Below, one piece after another: positions 203 to 7,064 of a DNA stretch of 9,689 bases. The position numbers were made by a program, and so were the translations under genes. This DNA is from a virus (Duplodnaviria > Heunggongvirae > Uroviricota > Caudoviricetes). The notes below the pieces were generated by a model. That model was not told the origin of the DNA, searched no databases, and worked only from the letters and a program-made list of their open reading frames with translations. The DNA is taken from the IMG/VR virus record IMGVR_UViG_3300026224_000016. One strand, written 5' to 3'. Each line of letters opens with the position of its first letter. Positions within the stretch are counted from its first letter, which is position 1.

Positions 203-1594
203 TCAAAAGAAACGCTCCATCTTACTGCTGTCAGTTCGTTTGTTGCTGTATCTGCGCGGCTGAGGCTGCTGCATTGGGGTGGAAAGAATCTGTGCGCTTT
301 CCTGATCCACAGGCAGAAAATGTCCGTTATAAAAACGCCGATAAATCGTCCCCAGAGAACCGTTACGTTGTTTCGTGATATTGATTTCTGCGATGCCCCT
401 GGCCTGCGTATCCGGGTTGTACACTTCATCCCTGTAAAGCATCAGAATGATGTCTGCATCCGCCTCTATTTCTCCGGAATTTTTCAGGTCTGAGTTCATG
501 GGGCGTTTATTGGGCCTGGACTCCACACCGCGGGAGAGCTGACTCAGCGCAATCAACGGAAAACCACCGGATTTTGCCAGGCCTTTAAGCCCCTTTGAGA
601 TTTCACCAACGGCAAGGTCATGACGCCCTGTGGTTCGGGTTTTTATCAGCCCGAGATAATCAACCACCACCAGCGCCGTTTCCGGATGTTTAATCAGGTG
701 ATGTTTCGTTGTTGCGCATATCTCATCAATGGTCAGGTTCGCCTGGTCCACCATCCAGATATTGCGCCCGGTCATCCGCCCCACTCCTTGTGAGAAACGT
801 GCCCAGTCTTCGTCTTCAAAGTGAGTGACAGATTTCAGGCGTGATACCGGCATTCCTCCAGCCGCAGATACCATGCGTTCACCAATCTGGATGTTCGCCA
901 TTTCCATTGTGAACAGAAGAACACCATGCCCCTGCTCAGTCACCTTGTCGATGATATCCAGCGCCAGTTCGGTTTTGCCCATCGAAGGACGTGCAGCAAT
1001 AAATACCAGGTCGCCAGGCTCCATGCCGCCCGTTTTTGCGTCCAGTTCATCAATACCGGTCATCAACGTCCTGGATTTCTCCAGCCCCTGATTCCGGCAT
1101 TCAACACGCTCAACCACTTCCGGAAGCACATCATCAATATGTACCGGCTGAATAACGCCCTTTTCCGTCGACAATGAGGCCATCATGTTCTGCGCATCCT
1201 TCAGAGCATCTTCAGCTGCTTCACAGGTATGCGCATCACGTAATTTCTGCAGCGCCTCATTCAGTGTTTTTTCTGCATCACGCAATGCGGCATTACGCCG
1301 CAACGCCGTAACATAGTGCTCCAGTGACGACTTCACCCAGGTTTTGCGCCCGGTATCAGTAATCACCGGGGCAAGTTCCGGCATCTCATTACACAACAGC
1401 ACAGGGTCAATCACGCCGGACACACGGGCCTGTCTGCAGATGCCTGTGTAGATATCCCGGTACGGTCGTACAGAAAAAACGTCCGCCGGTAGTGTGGCCA
1501 GAATATCCATCACTTCAGGATCTGCCCCTCGCAGAAAAAACGCGCCAATGACAGCGCCTTCCAGGTCATCGTTACGCCAGACAGGAGAAGTCAT
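203..1594 (-). CDS. DnaB-like replicative DNA helicase (463 aa)
   Basis: Walker A FIAARPSMGKTELALD and Walker B ALVVVDYLGLIK match the DnaB family RecA-like core. Start moved from the track's 1633 to the ATG at 1594, which has an SD (GGAGGTG, 7 nt spacer) and overlaps the upstream stop as ATGA at 1591-1594. Confidence 0.9.
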   Translation of the reverse strand: MTSPVWRNDDLEGAVIGAFFLRGADPEVMDILATLPADVFSVRPYRDIYTGICRQARVSGVIDPVLLCNEMPELAPVITDTGRKTWVKSSLEHYVTALRRNAALRDAEKTLNEALQKLRDAHTCEAAEDALKDAQNMMASLSTEKGVIQPVHIDDVLPEVVERVECRNQGLEKSRTLMTGIDELDAKTGGMEPGDLVFIAARPSMGKTELALDIIDKVTEQGHGVLLFTMEMANIQIGERMVSAAGGMPVSRLKSVTHFEDEDWARFSQGVGRMTGRNIWMVDQANLTIDEICATTKHHLIKHPETALVVVDYLGLIKTRTTGRHDLAVGEISKGLKGLAKSGGFPLIALSQLSRGVESRPNKRPMNSDLKNSGEIEADADIILMLYRDEVYNPDTQARGIAEINITKQRNGSLGTIYRRFYNGHFLPVDQESAQILSTPMQQPQPRRYSNKRTDSSKMERFF

Positions 1595-2481
1595 GCTGCC
1601 ACACCTCCGATATGTGCACGGTAACTTTCCCAACCAAACACCAGGCAGTTACGCCCACCATCAGTAACGCGATCCACAATCCGTTCACCAATGGACTCCT
1701 TAAGTTGGTCAAATGTCAGATTACTAATCAAAATTGTCGGTAAAACGCTTTCGTAACGTGCATTGATGATTTCCTGCAGGATGGTTATCTCTGTTGGCGT
1801 ACCGAACTGCACACCAACCTCATCGATGATGAGCAGGTCCAGCGATACAAAATGGTCAATAACTTCATCTTCAGTGCGTTCAGAATTGTGACGCCAGGTA
1901 TTTTTCACAGCGCGGGTCAGTCGCATGACATCCGTAATTTCGACAGTCGCCAGGTGGTGGCGAATAATATTTTTTGCCATTGATACAGCCAGGTGATTTT
2001 TCCCGGTACCGCAATTGCCAATCATGATCATGCTGGTACCCGCAGCAAGACACTTCTCCCATGAACTGGCATAGCGCCGACAAGCCTCAAGATTTCTCTG
2101 TGCGTCAGCATTCACAGCCTGGTAGTTCTCAAACTCGCAGTCCTGGAAGCGGCGGGCAATACCAGCTCTGTCAAGTAATTCATGAACTTTCAGGATGCGT
2201 AACGCCTCCTGTACCTGATCCAGTTCATTCGCAATGCAGGTCGGGCAACCAGACACCCGTTTGATGGTTTCCCCACGAACATCTGGCCCTTTCAACACCA
2301 GACGTGTGTATTTCCCGTGTTTCTCACACTCAGCAGTTTCCTCGCTTGTCAGCCAGTGTTCACAGCGCCACGGACGCTTCCCGGCACGGGCAAACTGCAT
2401 CTCCTCCTCCAGTTCCGCCCTGCGGTTGAGCAATTGCGCTTTATCGTGTTGTGCGTAGTGTTTTTTTAACTGTTCAAACAT
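1591..2481 (-). CDS. DnaC/IstB-like AAA+ helicase loader ATPase (296 aa) with N-terminal Cys-rich segment
   Basis: Walker A GNCGTGKNHLA (DnaC-type GTGKNHLA signature) and Walker B LLIIDEVG. N-terminal CEHW...CEKHG...CPTC cluster suggests a zinc-binding module. SD GAGGTG upstream of ATG 2481; stop overlaps helicase start. Confidence 0.85.
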   Translation of the reverse strand: MFEQLKKHYAQHDKAQLLNRRAELEEEMQFARAGKRPWRCEHWLTSEETAECEKHGKYTRLVLKGPDVRGETIKRVSGCPTCIANELDQVQEALRILKVHELLDRAGIARRFQDCEFENYQAVNADAQRNLEACRRYASSWEKCLAAGTSMIMIGNCGTGKNHLAVSMAKNIIRHHLATVEITDVMRLTRAVKNTWRHNSERTEDEVIDHFVSLDLLIIDEVGVQFGTPTEITILQEIINARYESVLPTILISNLTFDQLKESIGERIVDRVTDGGRNCLVFGWESYRAHIGGVAA

Positions 2482-2500
2482 TGTTCATCACCTCGAAAAA

Positions 2501-3478
2501 TCACCAGTTGAAGTTCGTTGAACCGTAGTCCTGCTCACTGAATCCCGAGATCGGGAGGCCGGTAGTTCGCCCACCTCCGGGAGCGGCTGGCTGTTGCCAG
2601 GATTCCTCGAAATGGCGATCGGGTCCAAAGAACGTCGCGGCCTGCTTCACGAACTGTGTGCCTGTATTTCCTGTAGCACGTACCCAGGCGGCATACCGCT
2701 TCACACCATCAAGCATGGTCTCCGGTTTTATTCCCTCCCTGATACGGGCTTTCCAGGCTTTGAAGGCTGCTGACTTGGAATTGCCACCAGCACGTTTGGG
2801 ATATTCCTGCCAGGCCTGTTCAAATTCCGGTGAATATTCCTGTCGGGCAGAACGCGCTGGTGCAGACGCGTCAGCGGATGCGCCAATAGTGTTTTTAGTC
2901 TCCGTTGTAATCTCTGTAGTAATCTCTGTATTTGTATCAACATTCGGCGTATCCCCTGTTCCGTTATGACGTTGGGGGGTGTTCCGTTTTAACGTAATAG
3001 CTGTATCGCTGATTGCGTTATTGCTGTTACTTTCTGGCGAAACAGAAGAAGGAGTAGTAATGGCAGCAATTGCCTGTGGGTTGATCCCGACAAACAAAAT
3101 ATTGCTGCATTTCACACCATCGAGCATTTCCACCGTGCGTAAATCCAGGGAAATAAACCCGGCATCACGAAGGCGCTTCAACGCATCCGCGGTTTCCCTT
3201 TTCCCGAAACCAAACTGCTCAGCAAACGCCTGATAACTTCTTTGCAGCTTGTCCCCCTGAAAACGCTTGCGATATCCCAGCAAAGCCCCGGTATGCTCAT
3301 CCCTGACTTCTGTCGGGCGGTACCAGTAAACGATCTCTGAGAGCAGGGCGATAGCGGTCGCATCCGGACGACCACTGGGTAGCCGAATATGTTTCCACCA
3401 GTTCGCTGGTGTGACATTGCCGGAAATATTAATTTGACCAATAGCTATAACTTCCGGTGTGGGGGCGTAACGACTCAT
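2501..3478 (-). CDS. phage replication initiation protein (O-like replisome organiser, 325 aa)
   Basis: Sits immediately upstream of the loader and helicase genes. Two-domain layout with a low-complexity linker (NTEITTEITTETK) encoded by tandem DNA repeats, as in lambda O where ori lies in the linker-coding region. Start ATG 3478 overlaps the upstream stop (ATGA). Family call is from architecture, not a search. Confidence 0.7.
   Translation of the reverse strand: MSRYAPTPEVIAIGQINISGNVTPANWWKHIRLPSGRPDATAIALLSEIVYWYRPTEVRDEHTGALLGYRKRFQGDKLQRSYQAFAEQFGFGKRETADALKRLRDAGFISLDLRTVEMLDGVKCSNILFVGINPQAIAAITTPSSVSPESNSNNAISDTAITLKRNTPQRHNGTGDTPNVDTNTEITTEITTETKNTIGASADASAPARSARQEYSPEFEQAWQEYPKRAGGNSKSAAFKAWKARIREGIKPETMLDGVKRYAAWVRATGNTGTQFVKQAATFFGPDRHFEESWQQPAAPGGGRTTGLPISGFSEQDYGSTNFNW
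2907..2930. repeat. perfect 12-bp tandem direct repeat GTAATCTCTGTA x2 inside the initiator gene; candidate origin iterons
   Basis: Read directly: 2907-2918 and 2919-2930 are identical, followed by a partial third unit (TTTGTATC). A second imperfect repeat pair GTTCCGTTATGACGTT (2958-2973) and GTTCCGTTTTAACGTA (2981-2996) lies just downstream, 13/16 identical. Confidence 0.6.
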
Positions 3479-3774
3479 ACAGCCTCCTTACGCGGCATAA
3501 CAATGGTGTAACCCCGGGCAGGCTGGAGCCGGGCTTTTGCATCAATAGTGAGCGTTGCAATTTTTCGGATACGCAGATACCCTGCCCTTTCCAGGGTCAG
3601 GGTTTCTCTGAACATTGCCTGTTTTGAACAGCAACAAAAATCGGCAAGGACCTGGTGATCAATAACCCTCTCACCTTCACCGTCTGAAGAACCCGACATC
3701 AAAACACGCAACATAATCAGGCGCTGAATCGGATTATCGAAAACACTTCCGCATACAAACTGAAAACAGTTCAC
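3475..3774 (-). CDS. hypothetical protein (99 aa), possible small DNA-binding regulator
   Basis: GTG start at 3774 preceded by SD GGGAGG with a 6-nt spacer. Start overlaps the upstream stop (GTGA) and its stop overlaps the initiator start (ATGA at 3475-3478). A possible helix-turn-helix segment (QVLADF...ERAGYLRIRK) is by eye only. Confidence 0.55.
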   Translation of the reverse strand: MNCFQFVCGSVFDNPIQRLIMLRVLMSGSSDGEGERVIDHQVLADFCCCSKQAMFRETLTLERAGYLRIRKIATLTIDAKARLQPARGYTIVMPRKEAV

Positions 3775-3995
3775 ACGGCACCTCCCAGGCGTTTAAACAT
3801 TTTTCCGGACTGAAACGCCACCAGTGGGTAACTGATGGTGTAGTTACGCCCCAGTAATTCACACACGACTTTCTGGCTTTCGGTACTGACCAGGCAAACC
3901 CGCAGAACATGGCCGTTGCTGGTGGCAAACCACTGCCCCACACGGGGGCAACGGTTGTATCGGTGATACAGGGAATTAACGACGCGGCGAATCAT
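3771..3995 (-). CDS. hypothetical protein (74 aa)
   Basis: ATG at 3995 overlaps the stop of the upstream 220-aa gene (ATGA at 3992-3995), with a GGGAAG SD-like element 7 nt upstream. The track's longer start at 4010 has no SD. No family recognised. Confidence 0.5.
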   Translation of the reverse strand: MIRRVVNSLYHRYNRCPRVGQWFATSNGHVLRVCLVSTESQKVVCELLGRNYTISYPLVAFQSGKMFKRLGGAV

Positions 3996-4654
3996 GGGCG
4001 CACTTCCCATTGATTACGGCGGAAAGCAGTGTGATTCAGGCTGGTTTCAGCCTCATGGAATGCTTCAATGCAGCTCTCGTAGTACCGCATTGTGCGCAGA
4101 CTTAACCCAAGCTGAAGCATCATCAGACCATCAAGGGTGATGTAATAACCACGCAGGGAATCGCCATACACGTGGTAAGTACCCGGAATGAAATTACGGG
4201 AGAAGAATTCACGTGAGCAGTTCAGATACTCGATTTTGTCGACGATGTTCTGGTGCATGCGCTTAAAGTGGCAGGCAACATGCAGGGAGAAAATAACAGC
4301 TTTGCCGTTGACGACTTCGATTTTCAGGTATGGGGAAGTTGGGACTGTAGCCATGATGGCAGCCTCCGTATGCAATGGATAACTTCCACCACCGGAAACG
4401 CCAATTTCACTGGTGGTGAACTGAACGGGGTTGGCGTAACCGGCGCATACGGAAACCGGCGCATCTTTCGATGCCCCCGCCCAGCCCACCATAATCTGGA
4501 TGTGAGCAAATGCGGACGATAAAAAAGACGCTGGCGCGTCGTATATCGCCGTATGCAATTCCAGGACGCCAATCCCGGCACCCGCTTTATAAGGTGCCAG
4601 AACAGTGTAACGTCCCGAAATTGCAGAATCAATATTTAGGCTTGAAACATTCAT
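3992..4654 (-). CDS. hypothetical protein (220 aa)
   Basis: Long ORF with protein-like composition, co-oriented with and coupled into the replication operon. Weak or absent SD upstream of ATG 4654. No motif recognised. Confidence 0.6.
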   Translation of the reverse strand: MNVSSLNIDSAISGRYTVLAPYKAGAGIGVLELHTAIYDAPASFLSSAFAHIQIMVGWAGASKDAPVSVCAGYANPVQFTTSEIGVSGGGSYPLHTEAAIMATVPTSPYLKIEVVNGKAVIFSLHVACHFKRMHQNIVDKIEYLNCSREFFSRNFIPGTYHVYGDSLRGYYITLDGLMMLQLGLSLRTMRYYESCIEAFHEAETSLNHTAFRRNQWEVRP

Positions 4655-4732
4655 ATGCTTACTGGTATTTTTGTTGACGTTCTTGGATTCTTGGGCCTGC
4701 TTTATGCAGTTGCCTGTATCAACGTTGAGCGA

Positions 4733-4757
4733 GCCGGGTTACTACCCGGCTTTTTTT
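4733..4757 (+). terminator. rho-independent terminator-like hairpin, oriented for plus-strand transcripts
   Basis: GC-rich stem GCCGGGT (4733-4739) / ACCCGGC (4744-4750), loop TACT, followed by TTTTTTT (4751-4757). On the minus strand the hairpin is preceded by an A-tract and followed by non-U-rich sequence, so polarity favours the plus strand although it sits right at the Rha gene stop. Confidence 0.5.
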
Positions 4758-5464
4758 CACCGCTGCCAACCAATAACCTGAAATAACCCCATTTTCGGGT
4801 GATACCAGCGAGTCCCTCGCGGTTCTGCTTCCTCCATAACCCGATAAAAAGCAGCCATAAACGGTTCCACAGCAACAATTGCGCGACGTGACAACAATCC
4901 GTCCGGCGTCATGAACTCATGGGTGTCTGTAGGAATTTGATAGGCGTTCACCAGATTGCGGCATTTATCATCTGACAAACCGGTTTTTGCTTTCAGTTGG
5001 CGATATCCGGCATAGCCCTCACGAATGGTGCCCTTTTTGATTTGCTCAACTGTTTCGGCAACATGGCTGACTTTTTCTTCCACCTGAGTGATCCGTTTCT
5101 GCTGGCGAACAGCTTCAAGAGCCATCGCTGCAACCATTTCGATTTCGCTCATTGGCTTACGGATCTGTTCTTCCAGTTCGCGCCAGCGATCTACCAGGCG
5201 AGCAGTGAATTCAGGACAGAGCTGTGCGACGACAATGATGCTGTCGCGCTTACCTTGTTCTCCTTCAAACAGGTAATGCTCATATTGAACTTTAAAACCT
5301 AAGTTATTGATTCTTTCGGAAACCTCAATTTGAGGAGACCGGACAACGCCACCTTTGGCTAATGTTTCAATAGTGCGTTTCACATTGTCATGACGTTTAC
5401 CCACCAGCTCTGCGATTTCAACGCTGGTCATGGATACTTTGTCGTTAAAAATTGCAGCGTTCAT
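4757..5464 (-). CDS. rha: Rha-family phage regulatory protein / antirepressor-like (235 aa)
   Basis: N-terminal segment MTSVEIAELVGKRHDNVKRTIETL matches the characteristic Rha-family N-terminal motif. Start set to ATG 5464 (SD AAAGAGG about 7 nt upstream) rather than the track's 5488. Confidence 0.75.
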   Translation of the reverse strand: MNAAIFNDKVSMTSVEIAELVGKRHDNVKRTIETLAKGGVVRSPQIEVSERINNLGFKVQYEHYLFEGEQGKRDSIIVVAQLCPEFTARLVDRWRELEEQIRKPMSEIEMVAAMALEAVRQQKRITQVEEKVSHVAETVEQIKKGTIREGYAGYRQLKAKTGLSDDKCRNLVNAYQIPTDTHEFMTPDGLLSRRAIVAVEPFMAAFYRVMEEAEPRGTRWYHPKMGLFQVIGWQR

Positions 5465-5635
5465 TGTTGCCTCTTTACGAAAAACCATGATTAACCTCTA
5501 GCTTTCCCCGTCTTTTCCGCACTTCTTGTACGGTGATATTATTCAGTGCCGGATGCTTACCCGTGTCCGGCGCACGACCACACGTAGCCGCGTGTTGGTC
5601 TCCATTTTCAATTCAGCTCTCAATGGAGGATAAAA

Positions 5636-5881
5636 ATGTCAAATACCCAACATCTAAAAGCGGCGGATCCCGTTTTACGCCTCAATGCACTTGAAACGGT
5701 TGTTCGGGCGATGCTGTCGAGCATGACACCCGAGCAAATAAACAAAGCGCGATTGATTGCTACTCGTGGTGCCCAATTAGCAGCCCTAGATCCATTGCTC
5801 ACTCCTGCGAATCGCGAAGATGTAGAGCACATTCAGGGGATGGTTGATTATTTATTCGCCCATATTCCTGATCAGATTTGA
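5636..5881 (+). CDS. hypothetical protein (81 aa), opposite in orientation to the surrounding early operon
   Basis: Near-ideal SD GGAGGA (5625-5630) 5 nt before ATG 5636. Helix-rich, Ala/Leu-rich soluble-looking product. A hairpin GCCGCC/GGCGGC (5914-5936) followed by a T-rich stretch lies about 30 nt after the stop. No family recognised. Confidence 0.5.
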   Translation: MSNTQHLKAADPVLRLNALETVVRAMLSSMTPEQINKARLIATRGAQLAALDPLLTPANREDVEHIQGMVDYLFAHIPDQI

Positions 5882-5962: not shown

Positions 5963-6208
5963 TCACTTCTCGTCCTCTGTGTGCGCTAAGCTTGGGTGTG
6001 GAAAAAGCTCTGGTAGGTCTGGACGAAATTCATACGCTTGGATCTTTCCGTCGACAGCTGCAACCAATAACGGCACAAATTCTGGTGAAATCTTGTTCTT
6101 GCAGTTCAACCAATCGCAGACTGTTGACTGGGCCTTTCCGCATCGCTTGGCTAAGGCTTGCTGACTTCCAAGAATCTCAATAGCTTTCTCTATGGCTTTA
6201 TGTTTCAT
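5963..6208 (-). CDS. cro: Cro-like HTH transcriptional regulator (81 aa)
   Basis: Small HTH protein (GSQQALAKRCGKAQSTVCDWLN) transcribed divergently from the cI-like repressor. Start set to ATG 6208 with SD AGGAGA 7 nt upstream; the track's start at 6259 would lie upstream of the predicted promoter. Confidence 0.75.
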   Translation of the reverse strand: MKHKAIEKAIEILGSQQALAKRCGKAQSTVCDWLNCKNKISPEFVPLLVAAVDGKIQAYEFRPDLPELFPHPSLAHTEDEK

Positions 6209-6230
6209 AATCGCATCTCCTATTGAACGC

Positions 6231-6259
6231 ATAATAACAACAGGAAAAGCGATATTCAA
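6231..6259 (-). promoter_or_regulatory. candidate PR-like sigma70 promoter driving cro and the early operon
   Basis: Read on the minus strand: -35 TTGAAT (plus coordinates 6259-6254), 17-nt spacer, -10 TATTAT (6236-6231), placing the transcript start about 15-25 nt upstream of the cro ATG. Confidence 0.5.
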
Positions 6260-6327: not shown

Positions 6328-7020
6328 ATGACATTTTCAGAACGACTTGATTTAGCTATGCGCAACGCAAAATTTACGCAAGGTAGGCTGGCCAAAGAAG
6401 TGGGTATGGCTCAGTCCAGTGTCAATCAACTACTTAACAAAGCCAACGGTTCCAGAAAAACAGTCGAAATAGCAAAAGTTTTGGGCGTTAACCCGGAATG
6501 GCTCGCATCGGGTGTTGGCCCAATGGAAATCGTGACCTCTGCAGACTCACACCAAATACGTAACATTTCTGAAGATTGGGTTACTGATTCGTATGTCGTG
6601 GATGTTTTAGACATCAGATATAGTTGCGGACCTGGTAGTTATAACTCTGATTTTCCTGACATTGTCAGATCTATAGCGATAGAACCAGGATACGCATCAA
6701 GAGTTTTTGGCGGCAGGCCAGCATCAGCAATCAAAGCAATAAACGCCCACGGCGACAGTATGAAAGGCACAATAGACCCTGAAGACTTGGTATTTGTAGA
6801 TGTATCAGTTCGCACATTTAATGGTGATGGTATATACGCCTTTACATACTCTGGAACATCGCACATCAAAAGACTTCAAAAAATCAAAGATACTCTAACG
6901 GTGATATCTGACAACCCAGCTTACAAGGATTGGGCTATCGAACCGGAAGACTTCGAACAACTTCACATTGACGGAAAAGTAATTGTCAGTTGGCCCATGA
7001 CACTACACCGTTTTGCATAA
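6328..7020 (+). CDS. cI: CI-like prophage repressor: N-terminal XRE-type HTH plus C-terminal LexA/S24 autopeptidase domain (230 aa)
   Basis: HTH FTQGRLAKEVGMAQSSVNQLLN. S24 catalytic signatures: Ser in AHGDSMKG and Lys in HIKRLQK. SD GGAGG 9 nt before ATG 6328. Divergent from cro. Confidence 0.9.
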   Translation: MTFSERLDLAMRNAKFTQGRLAKEVGMAQSSVNQLLNKANGSRKTVEIAKVLGVNPEWLASGVGPMEIVTSADSHQIRNISEDWVTDSYVVDVLDIRYSCGPGSYNSDFPDIVRSIAIEPGYASRVFGGRPASAIKAINAHGDSMKGTIDPEDLVFVDVSVRTFNGDGIYAFTYSGTSHIKRLQKIKDTLTVISDNPAYKDWAIEPEDFEQLHIDGKVIVSWPMTLHRFA

Positions 7021-7038: not shown

Positions 7039-7064
7039 GCCCACTCTTAAGTGGGCTTTTTTTT
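7039..7064 (+). terminator. rho-independent terminator downstream of cI
   Basis: Stem GCCCACT (7039-7045) / AGTGGGC (7050-7056), loop CTTA, followed by eight T residues (7057-7064), 19 nt after the cI stop. Confidence 0.8.

Follow-up and report, generated by a model that had tools for sequence, protein, structure and literature searches.

A replication cassette with a putative initiator, a DnaC-like helicase loader and a DnaB-family helicase in the early region of a lambdoid Escherichia coli prophage

Which steps of replication initiation can a lambdoid prophage take over from its host when it encodes an initiator, a helicase loader and a replicative helicase side by side? The question is raised by IMG/VR record IMGVR_UViG_3300026224_000016 (Caudoviricetes), a stretch of 9,689 nucleotides analysed at its full length and referred to here as the window, which is the early region of a lambdoid Escherichia coli prophage. 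Its replication cassette consists of three consecutive minus-strand open reading frames (ORFs) in the order initiator, loader and helicase, at window coordinates 203-3478. Most likely, the phage substitutes for host DnaA, DnaC and DnaB at its own origin; we estimate at roughly 0.8 the probability that the trio is an intact replication module acting in this manner, with the remaining functions drawn from the host. Cassettes of this kind are already known and common in E. coli prophages, including those of Shiga-toxin (Stx) phages. The features that carry this reading are the following:

2501..3478, minus strand: initiator gene, 325 amino acids (aa), matching PHROG 270.
1591..2481, minus strand: DnaC-like AAA+ helicase loader gene, 296 aa, matching DnaC, NCBIfam and PHROG 50.
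203..1594, minus strand: DnaB-family replicative helicase gene, 463 aa, matching Pfam and E. coli DnaB.
1591..1594, minus strand: ATGA overlap of the loader stop (TGA, 1593-1591) and the helicase start (ATG, 1594-1592), the junction reading ...GCAGCATGACT...
1987..2010, minus strand: Walker A motif of the loader, GTGKNHLA (K161), translated and aligned to DnaC.
968..991, minus strand: Walker A motif of the helicase, RPSMGKTE, translated and aligned to E. coli DnaB.
2236..2328, minus strand: Cys/His cluster of the loader, C52-x2-H55 ... C79-x2-C82, residues 52-82, kept in relatives.

A preliminary description of this DNA had assigned the three functions to these ORFs, pointed to the two motifs and reported the overlap of loader and helicase. 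Family matches support all three assignments well beyond chance, the motifs are read at 2010-1987 (GTGKNHLA) and 991-968 (RPSMGKTE), and the overlap lies at 1594-1591.

The most distal gene of the cassette encodes, to judge from its sequence, a DnaB-family replicative helicase, for which a hexameric 5'-3' activity is predicted. It matched the Pfam DnaB_C family (PF03796) with E=8.2e-73 and 245 bits (cut-off 27) over profile positions 2-247 of 255, and its residues 9-96 matched the DnaB N-domain family (PF00772) with 24.1 bits (cut-off 23; E=3.7e-5). Compared with E. coli DnaB (E=3e-66), it displayed 35.8% identity over the aligned region, which begins at residue 12. Residues K207, E231, D312, Q352 and R410 align with DnaB K237, E262, D343, Q384 and R442; we take them to be, respectively, the Walker A lysine, the catalytic glutamate, the Walker B aspartate, the glutamine of motif H3 and the arginine finger.

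The middle gene encodes a DnaC-clade AAA+ helicase loader, with binding and loading of the helicase as its predicted function. Its identity to E. coli DnaC is 35.2% over the aligned region, and it matched PHROG 50, 'DnaC-like helicase loader', with E=3e-83. Residues K161 (Walker A), D220/E221 (Walker B), N254 (sensor I), R271 (arginine finger) and R288 (sensor II) correspond to DnaC K112, D169/E170, N203, R220 and R237, and the 'arginine coupler', R267, is also present. These roles have been described for DnaC, in which any single mutation of K112, E170, N203, R220 or R237 abolishes the ATPase activity (PMC8213410). Intact catalytic residues, on which the preliminary description had made its proposal depend, are therefore found in both proteins, as every canonical residue of E. 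coli DnaC is present in the loader and every one of E. coli DnaB is retained in the helicase. In NCBIfam the loader scored 149 bits against the DnaC model (equivalog cut-off 357), and the helicase 310 bits against the DnaB model (cut-off 385); since both fall below the equivalog cut-offs, the two proteins are phage paralogues rather than copies of host dnaC and dnaB.

The AAA+ protein could also have been an IstB-type transposition helper of an IS21-family element, a reading suggested by its Pfam match, as PF01695 (IstB_IS21) was the only family above threshold (57.6 bits, cut-off 24.1; E=1.8e-15), and by the presence of an insertion sequence (IS) end at 1-127. However, PF01695 spans the entire DnaC/DnaI/IstB clade, and within it the protein is far closer to DnaC: matches to PDB chains gave E=1e-31 and 113 bits for E. 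coli DnaC (6qel), 4e-7 and 33 bits for IstB of IS5376, and about 1e-5 for DnaI-type chains, and the NCBIfam IstB model scored 70 bits (cut-off 200) against 149 for DnaC. Moreover, no istA gene is adjacent, the neighbours being the initiator and the DnaB-family helicase, the IS sequence at 1-127 is of the IS3 family and not of IS21, and an equal gene order occurs in complete phage genomes. The transposition helper, which the preliminary description had named as a possible refutation, was thus rejected on sequence grounds, and we regard it as extremely improbable.

Loader and helicase are also bound together by their arrangement. The initiator and loader genes are separated by 19 nt, and the loader and helicase genes by -4 nt. 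Although the reading frame of the helicase extends back to a TTG at 1633, translation really begins with the ATG at 1594, which is preceded by GGAGG and coincides with the helicase start annotated in relatives. Through the ATGA overlap formed at this start the two genes are, as far as the junction can be read, translationally coupled; the overlap is kept at the junctions of 37/37 close IMG/VR relatives, including those whose helicase N-terminus carries an insertion of 3-4 residues, and a relative from Yersinia also displays 4-nt overlaps between the genes of its module.

The cassette is widespread. The window is 96% identical to E. coli UMNF18 over 90% of its length, with the same gene lengths, and 92.6% identical to the Stx2e phage phiP27 over 62% of its length; many Stx1 and Stx2 phages display about 82-88% identity, and the three-gene module alone reaches 98.9% DNA identity with E. 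coli cq9. Among 5426 complete E. coli genomes, 480 contain a match to the 3.3-kb module, and in 232 of these the match spans 80% or more of the module; every match is chromosomal. The same three genes are present in a prophage of Yersinia enterocolitica whose initiator is only ~50% identical. Comparison with four relatives yielded ratios of nonsynonymous to synonymous substitution rates (dN/dS) of 0.06-0.20 across all three genes, showing purifying selection, which is strongest in the helicase (0.06-0.07).

A different view is that the module is a decaying remnant within a defective prophage and no longer functional. An IS3-family insertion lies 75 bp past the helicase stop, cuts the next small ORF and parts the early operon from the region of the Q antiterminator. 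Nevertheless, this insertion lies outside the three genes, whose ORFs are untruncated, match those of UMNF18 in length and are nearly identical in DNA to those of cq9; all catalytic residues and motifs are retained, and the gene family evolves under the purifying selection described above. We therefore rejected a pseudogene or decayed module, and assign it a low probability.

A third possibility is that the loader acts mainly on host DnaB, in a hijack resembling that by lambda P, with the phage helicase as an auxiliary or alternative enzyme, in which case replication would not be independent of DnaB. Relatives lend this some weight. Loaders 41% identical to that of the window, which share its N-terminal Cys/His motif and AAA+ residues, are encoded in IMG/VR loci L040-L062 (e.g., L044, 2677-7091), in lambda-like modules with cI, a cII-like gene, an O-like initiator, the DnaC-like loader, a ren-like gene and ninB, and within 5 kb of them we found no DnaB-like helicase. 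Such loaders presumably use host DnaB, and this loader clade can thus presumably engage host DnaB as well. Likewise, DnaC-type loaders without a phage helicase have been reported in prophages Sp4, Sp10 and Sp12 of E. coli O157 Sakai (PMC2669165). Within the lineage studied here, however, the loader never occurs without the helicase, which lies directly downstream in 37/37 IMG/VR loci whose loader is at least 82% identical. This constant pairing, together with translational coupling and the strong selection on the helicase, whose dN/dS is the lowest of the three, fits an obligate loader-helicase pair, so that a host-directed loader appears unlikely, if somewhat less so than decay.

How such a pair would be brought to the phage DNA depends on the first gene. 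Its product matched PHROG 270, 'replication initiation protein', with E=4.7e-75, and its homologues carry the NCBI name 'replication protein'; matches to 'O-like' PHROG entries were weak (E=2e-6 and 5e-5). Searches of Pfam and NCBIfam and a phmmer search of PDB gave no match for the initiator, and a profile search of PDB with its C-terminal domain was also empty; allowing E-values up to 10, Pfam yielded HTH_36 at E=0.05 only, and Phage_rep_O was not found. An AlphaFold model built with 30 homologues displayed two confident domains flanking the low-confidence residues 144-212, which divides the gene as follows:

3050..3478, minus strand: N-domain, residues 1-143, a winged helix-turn-helix in the AlphaFold model, presumed to bind the origin.
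2843..3049, minus strand: linker-coding DNA, residues 144-212, predicted to be disordered in the protein; candidate replication origin.
2588..2842, minus strand: C-domain, residues 213-297, helical, presumed to recruit the loader-helicase pair.

This division is mirrored by the mosaicism of the initiator. In each of the 37 loci with the loader-helicase pair the C-domain shows 81-100% identity, while the N-domain is exchanged among relatives for four or more other types, in part matching Pfam HTH_36, with breakpoints between variants in the linker, at residue ~165 or ~213. The reverse combination is found in two Salmonella contigs (L066 and L067, 4001-6983, encoding P0112), where the same N-domain and a matching iteron are joined to another C-domain, and the initiator gene is followed by that of a 623-aa Toprim/AAA_25 primase-helicase, with no DnaC-like loader. 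By sequence comparison, these contigs represent a natural domain swap that ties the kind of helicase system to the C-domain. Because the C-domain is constant beside loader and helicase whatever the N-domain, and is replaced beside the primase-helicase, it is the presumed recruiter; the N-domain and its iterons appear to be swapped as one specificity unit, with the C-domain travelling with the helicase system that it would recruit.

At the start of the C-domain (window 2801-2848) we also observed a 15-bp direct repeat with copies 33 bp apart (ATATTCCTGCCAGGC and ATATTCCTGTCGGGC), which encodes QEY...QEY; in homologue P0074, exactly that segment is tandemly duplicated (QEYSPEFEQAW twice).

The DNA encoding the linker provides a candidate for the site at which the N-domain would act:

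2980..2995, minus strand: iteron copy 1, ACGTTAAAACGGAACA, 16 bp, in the linker DNA.
2957..2972, minus strand: iteron copy 2, ACGTCATAACGGAACA, 16 bp, 23 bp from copy 1.
2885..2950, minus strand: AT-rich tract with 34.8% G+C, against 51.9% for the whole gene; presumed DNA-unwinding element.

The two iteron matches in the window compare with 0.14 expected. The iteron core is present in 9/9 loci that share the N-domain type, where it invariably lies in the linker, and in 1/58 loci without that type, this single match having 3 mismatches and lying in a tail-fibre gene. The adjacent AT-rich tract contains a 12-bp tandem repeat (CAGAGATTACTA-like) at 2899-2930 (TRF period 12, 2.7 copies), and is followed at 2843-2884 by a segment with 71% G+C. 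Each of the three other N-domain types examined has its own repeat set at the equivalent position: L006 and the HTH_36-type variant L008 carry in the initiator linker DNA four copies of a ~21-24-bp unit, GGTGCA...TTCACCAGG, and the repeats of L017 and L024 (in the latter, AAACCCnnTTTCG) adjoin shared A-rich 12-bp repeats. Thus, in several variants with another N-domain, L017 and L024 among them, the AT-rich tract is kept beside a different iteron set. In Y. enterocolitica (contig L064, 5449-5583), a 45-bp unit carrying the iteron core is repeated three times within the initiator gene, making the protein linker a repeated peptide (VTPPTLKRNTPLRSD). A search of the window for DnaA boxes found only loose matches, one at 1901 and one at 6005, neither of them close to the candidate origin. 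From the position, specificity and composition of these elements, the linker DNA at 2885-2995 likely carries the replication origin. The number of iteron copies was seen to vary, from two half-units in the window to about six in L064.

Taken together, these findings suggest how the module might operate. Once the CI repressor is lost, transcription from PR would yield the three proteins; the winged-helix N-domain of the initiator would bind the 16-bp iterons within its own gene and destabilise the neighbouring tract of 35% G+C in the manner of lambda O at ori-lambda, and its conserved C-domain would recruit the loader-helicase complex. The ATP-bound loader would then open the hexamer of the phage DnaB-like helicase, set the ring on the unwound strands, hydrolyse ATP and depart, after which the helicase would recruit the host DnaG primase and the Pol III holoenzyme. 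No primase, polymerase or single-stranded DNA-binding protein (SSB) is encoded in the window, and none is annotated across the complete phiP27 genome; host DnaG, Pol III and SSB would thus still be required, and dependence on the host remains heavy. The preliminary description had proposed replication largely independent of host DnaB and DnaC, and for these two proteins, by analogy with P22 gene 12 and with SPP1, independence would be a reasonable expectation.

Several points weigh against such a module acting in place of the three host proteins. Because the initiator has no Pfam, NCBIfam or PDB match, the case for its role is built from PHROG labels, gene position, fold and co-variation; clear iteron copies number just two in the window, a lower count than in classical origins. 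In the loader, the DnaC tetrad that contacts single-stranded DNA (K143/F146/S177/Y179) corresponds to K193/W196/T228/T230, two of the four residues being different and the other two retained or conservatively changed. The N-terminal region of the loader has no similarity to DnaC's domain for binding the helicase, the alignment beginning at DnaC residue 47, so that the contact between loader and helicase is assumed. Finally, we found no experiments on this module type in the literature: the replication modules of non-lambda Stx phages are described as lacking experimental study (PMC8951638), and a work on 'P27' O-protein-origin complexes (PMC7466680) covers lambda-type O proteins, with nothing on this module.

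The N-terminal region of the loader nonetheless has a distinctive trait in its Cys/His cluster, which persists in relatives that are 83%, 60% (phiP27) and 41% identical and has no counterpart in the aligned part of E. coli DnaC; DnaC residues 1-46 display no similarity to the loader. From its conservation, the cluster may form a zinc-binding region that interacts with the helicase. A more distant kinship can be considered, in which the initiator would be a modular adaptor with a remote DnaD-like C-domain, the Cys/His region of the loader would be a zinc domain of the DnaI kind, and the module would work like the DnaD-DnaI-helicase system of Firmicutes and not like lambda O-P. A search of PDB for a DnaI-like zinc domain with loader residues 1-120 returned only chance matches to SRP9, and we hold this kinship to be doubtful, though less remote than the rival readings above. 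If it were true, the lineage would be a candidate living relative of the phage stock behind the domesticated enterobacterial dnaC.

The cassette belongs to a longer early operon, whose remaining parts and surroundings in the window are listed below:

3475..3774, minus strand: orf99, with an ATGA overlap (3478-3475) with the initiator gene; optional small operon gene.
3771..4010, minus strand: orf79, with a GTGA overlap with orf99; conserved small gene upstream of the replication genes.
5963..6259, minus strand: Cro-like gene of the YdaS family (Pfam YdaS_toxin, E=1e-14), heading the rightward operon that includes the replication genes.
6259-6231, minus strand: PR-like promoter site, from a promoter scan.
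6328..7020, plus strand: CI-type repressor gene with helix-turn-helix and S24 peptidase domains (Peptidase_S24, E=7.5e-17; PHROG 4, E=1e-53), divergent from the replication operon.
1-127, junction at 126/127: end of an IS3-family element (IS629/IS1203-like), whose terminal repeat on the minus strand reads TGAACCGCCCCGGGTTTCC; no other IS sequence lies in the window.

From the overlaps between orf79 and orf99, orf99 and the initiator gene, and loader and helicase genes, the whole block reads as one coupled operon. The orf79 product matched PHROG 1153 (function unknown) with E=3e-43, and the gene is present in 36/37 close IMG/VR loci, the exception (L018) ending at a contig end. In turn, orf99 matched PHROG 4617, 'replication initiation protein', in the N-terminal part of that family, with E=1e-27. 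Of the relatives that share the initiator, only some carry orf99 (L002, L004, L005, L033 and L035), and L003 lacks it; the gene resembles an optional insertion or what is left of a second initiator. Upstream, the Cro-like gene has an annotated start in UMNF18 that gives 80 aa. A scan for promoters and terminators found fewer promoter-like sites in the window than in shuffled sequences, its sole addition being the PR-like site upstream of cro.

Beyond the helicase stop, the IS3-family sequence interrupts, after ~22 codons, an ORF of ~80 aa (ATG at 191, minus strand), which in intact relatives such as UMNF18 is followed by the Q antiterminator gene. By parting the early operon from the Q region, the insertion may affect late gene expression, so that the prophage may be defective for late functions with its replication module intact.

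Other observations concern the region between cro and the replication genes. An Ash-Rha fusion (220 aa, 3992-4654) and a Rha/Ant-like protein (243 aa, 4757-5488) are encoded there on the minus strand; Rha and Rha/Ash genes beside a LexA-like cI define the 'Eru7' type of Stx phages (PMC8951638), and the pair found in the window corresponds to this regulatory-region signature. An 81-aa ORF on the plus strand (5636-5881), antisense between the Rha gene and cro, had no PHROG match, and its homologue in UMNF18 is annotated as 'bssS family protein'. Strong terminator-like hairpins followed by T-runs were found on the plus strand at 7039-7056, just past the cI stop, and at 4731-4752, between the Ash-Rha and Rha genes, the latter on the strand opposite to the early operon.

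As a discovery, the cassette carries small weight, being a named module type, already annotated in phiP27 and widespread in E. coli prophages including many Stx phages. The additions made here are modest, namely a domain map for an uncurated initiator family, a candidate origin and, for the loader, the N-terminal Cys/His region. Their practical use lies in a starting map for the replication of non-lambda Stx phages, comprising the domain bounds of the initiator, the origin candidate at 2885-2995 and the swapping of N-domains with iterons, and the value of such a map stems from the fact that phage copy number drives toxin output.

With regard to known systems, the preliminary description had contrasted the cassette with lambda-type modules, which recruit host DnaB, and with P22-type modules, which encode an initiator and a helicase. 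Its statement that all three functions are present held, whereas the contrast with these two types is incomplete: the order initiator, helicase loader, helicase (ILH) is a recognised type, which PMC9144972, citing Weigel and Seitz 2006, calls typical of 'ILH-type' modules, and the genes are annotated in phiP27 (GenBank AJ298298) as 'putative replication protein DnaC' and 'putative helicase'. The closest described counterparts are L17-L18-L19 of phiP27 and the corresponding genes of 'Eru7'-type Stx phages such as Stx2_14040 (LC567818), which resemble the window in gene order and in their location downstream of Rha/Ash-Rha genes and a LexA-like CI. In phiP27, the helicase and the initiator C-domain are each 98% identical to those of the window, whereas the loader is only 60% identical and the initiator N-domain is of another type; the prophages of UMNF18 and cq9 are nearer to the window (96-99%) than phiP27.

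The classic ILH case is G38P-G39P-G40P of Bacillus phage SPP1, with the same three functions in equal order. The window helicase matched PDB 3bgw, which we take to be the SPP1 helicase G40P, with E=1e-46, and the SPP1 origin lies within its initiator gene. The two systems differ in that SPP1 G39P is not known to be an AAA+ protein, whereas the window loader is a DnaC-clade AAA+ ATPase, and in that their initiators are unrelated in sequence. In phage lambda, the N-domain of O binds iterons in the middle of its gene beside an AT-rich tract, and its C-domain recruits the loader. A similar layout of two-domain initiator and in-gene origin would apply to the window, as suggested by its domain boundaries and repeats, although the window initiator has no match to the Pfam family of lambda O, lambda P has no known relation to DnaC, and lambda, which has no helicase gene of its own, captures host DnaB instead. 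Phage P22, with genes 18 and 12, encodes an initiator and a DnaB-type helicase in a lambdoid early operon; both P22 and the window thus have a phage helicase of the DnaB family, but P22 is not known to have a DnaC-like loader gene. Lambdoid prophages with DnaB-family 'elongation proteins' have also been reported (PMC2669165).

The IstB proteins of IS21 elements share the AAA+ clade PF01695 with the window loader, from which they are set apart by a weaker match, the missing istA partner and the phage replication setting. DnaC-like genes are familiar from phages, and enterobacterial dnaC is considered to derive from them by domestication (PMC5109545). Relative to the DnaC-DnaB pair of E. coli itself, the window proteins have the catalytic residues in common, and differ in the longer, unrelated N-terminus of the loader with its Cys/His cluster, and in recruitment, which would be carried out by the phage initiator instead of DnaA.

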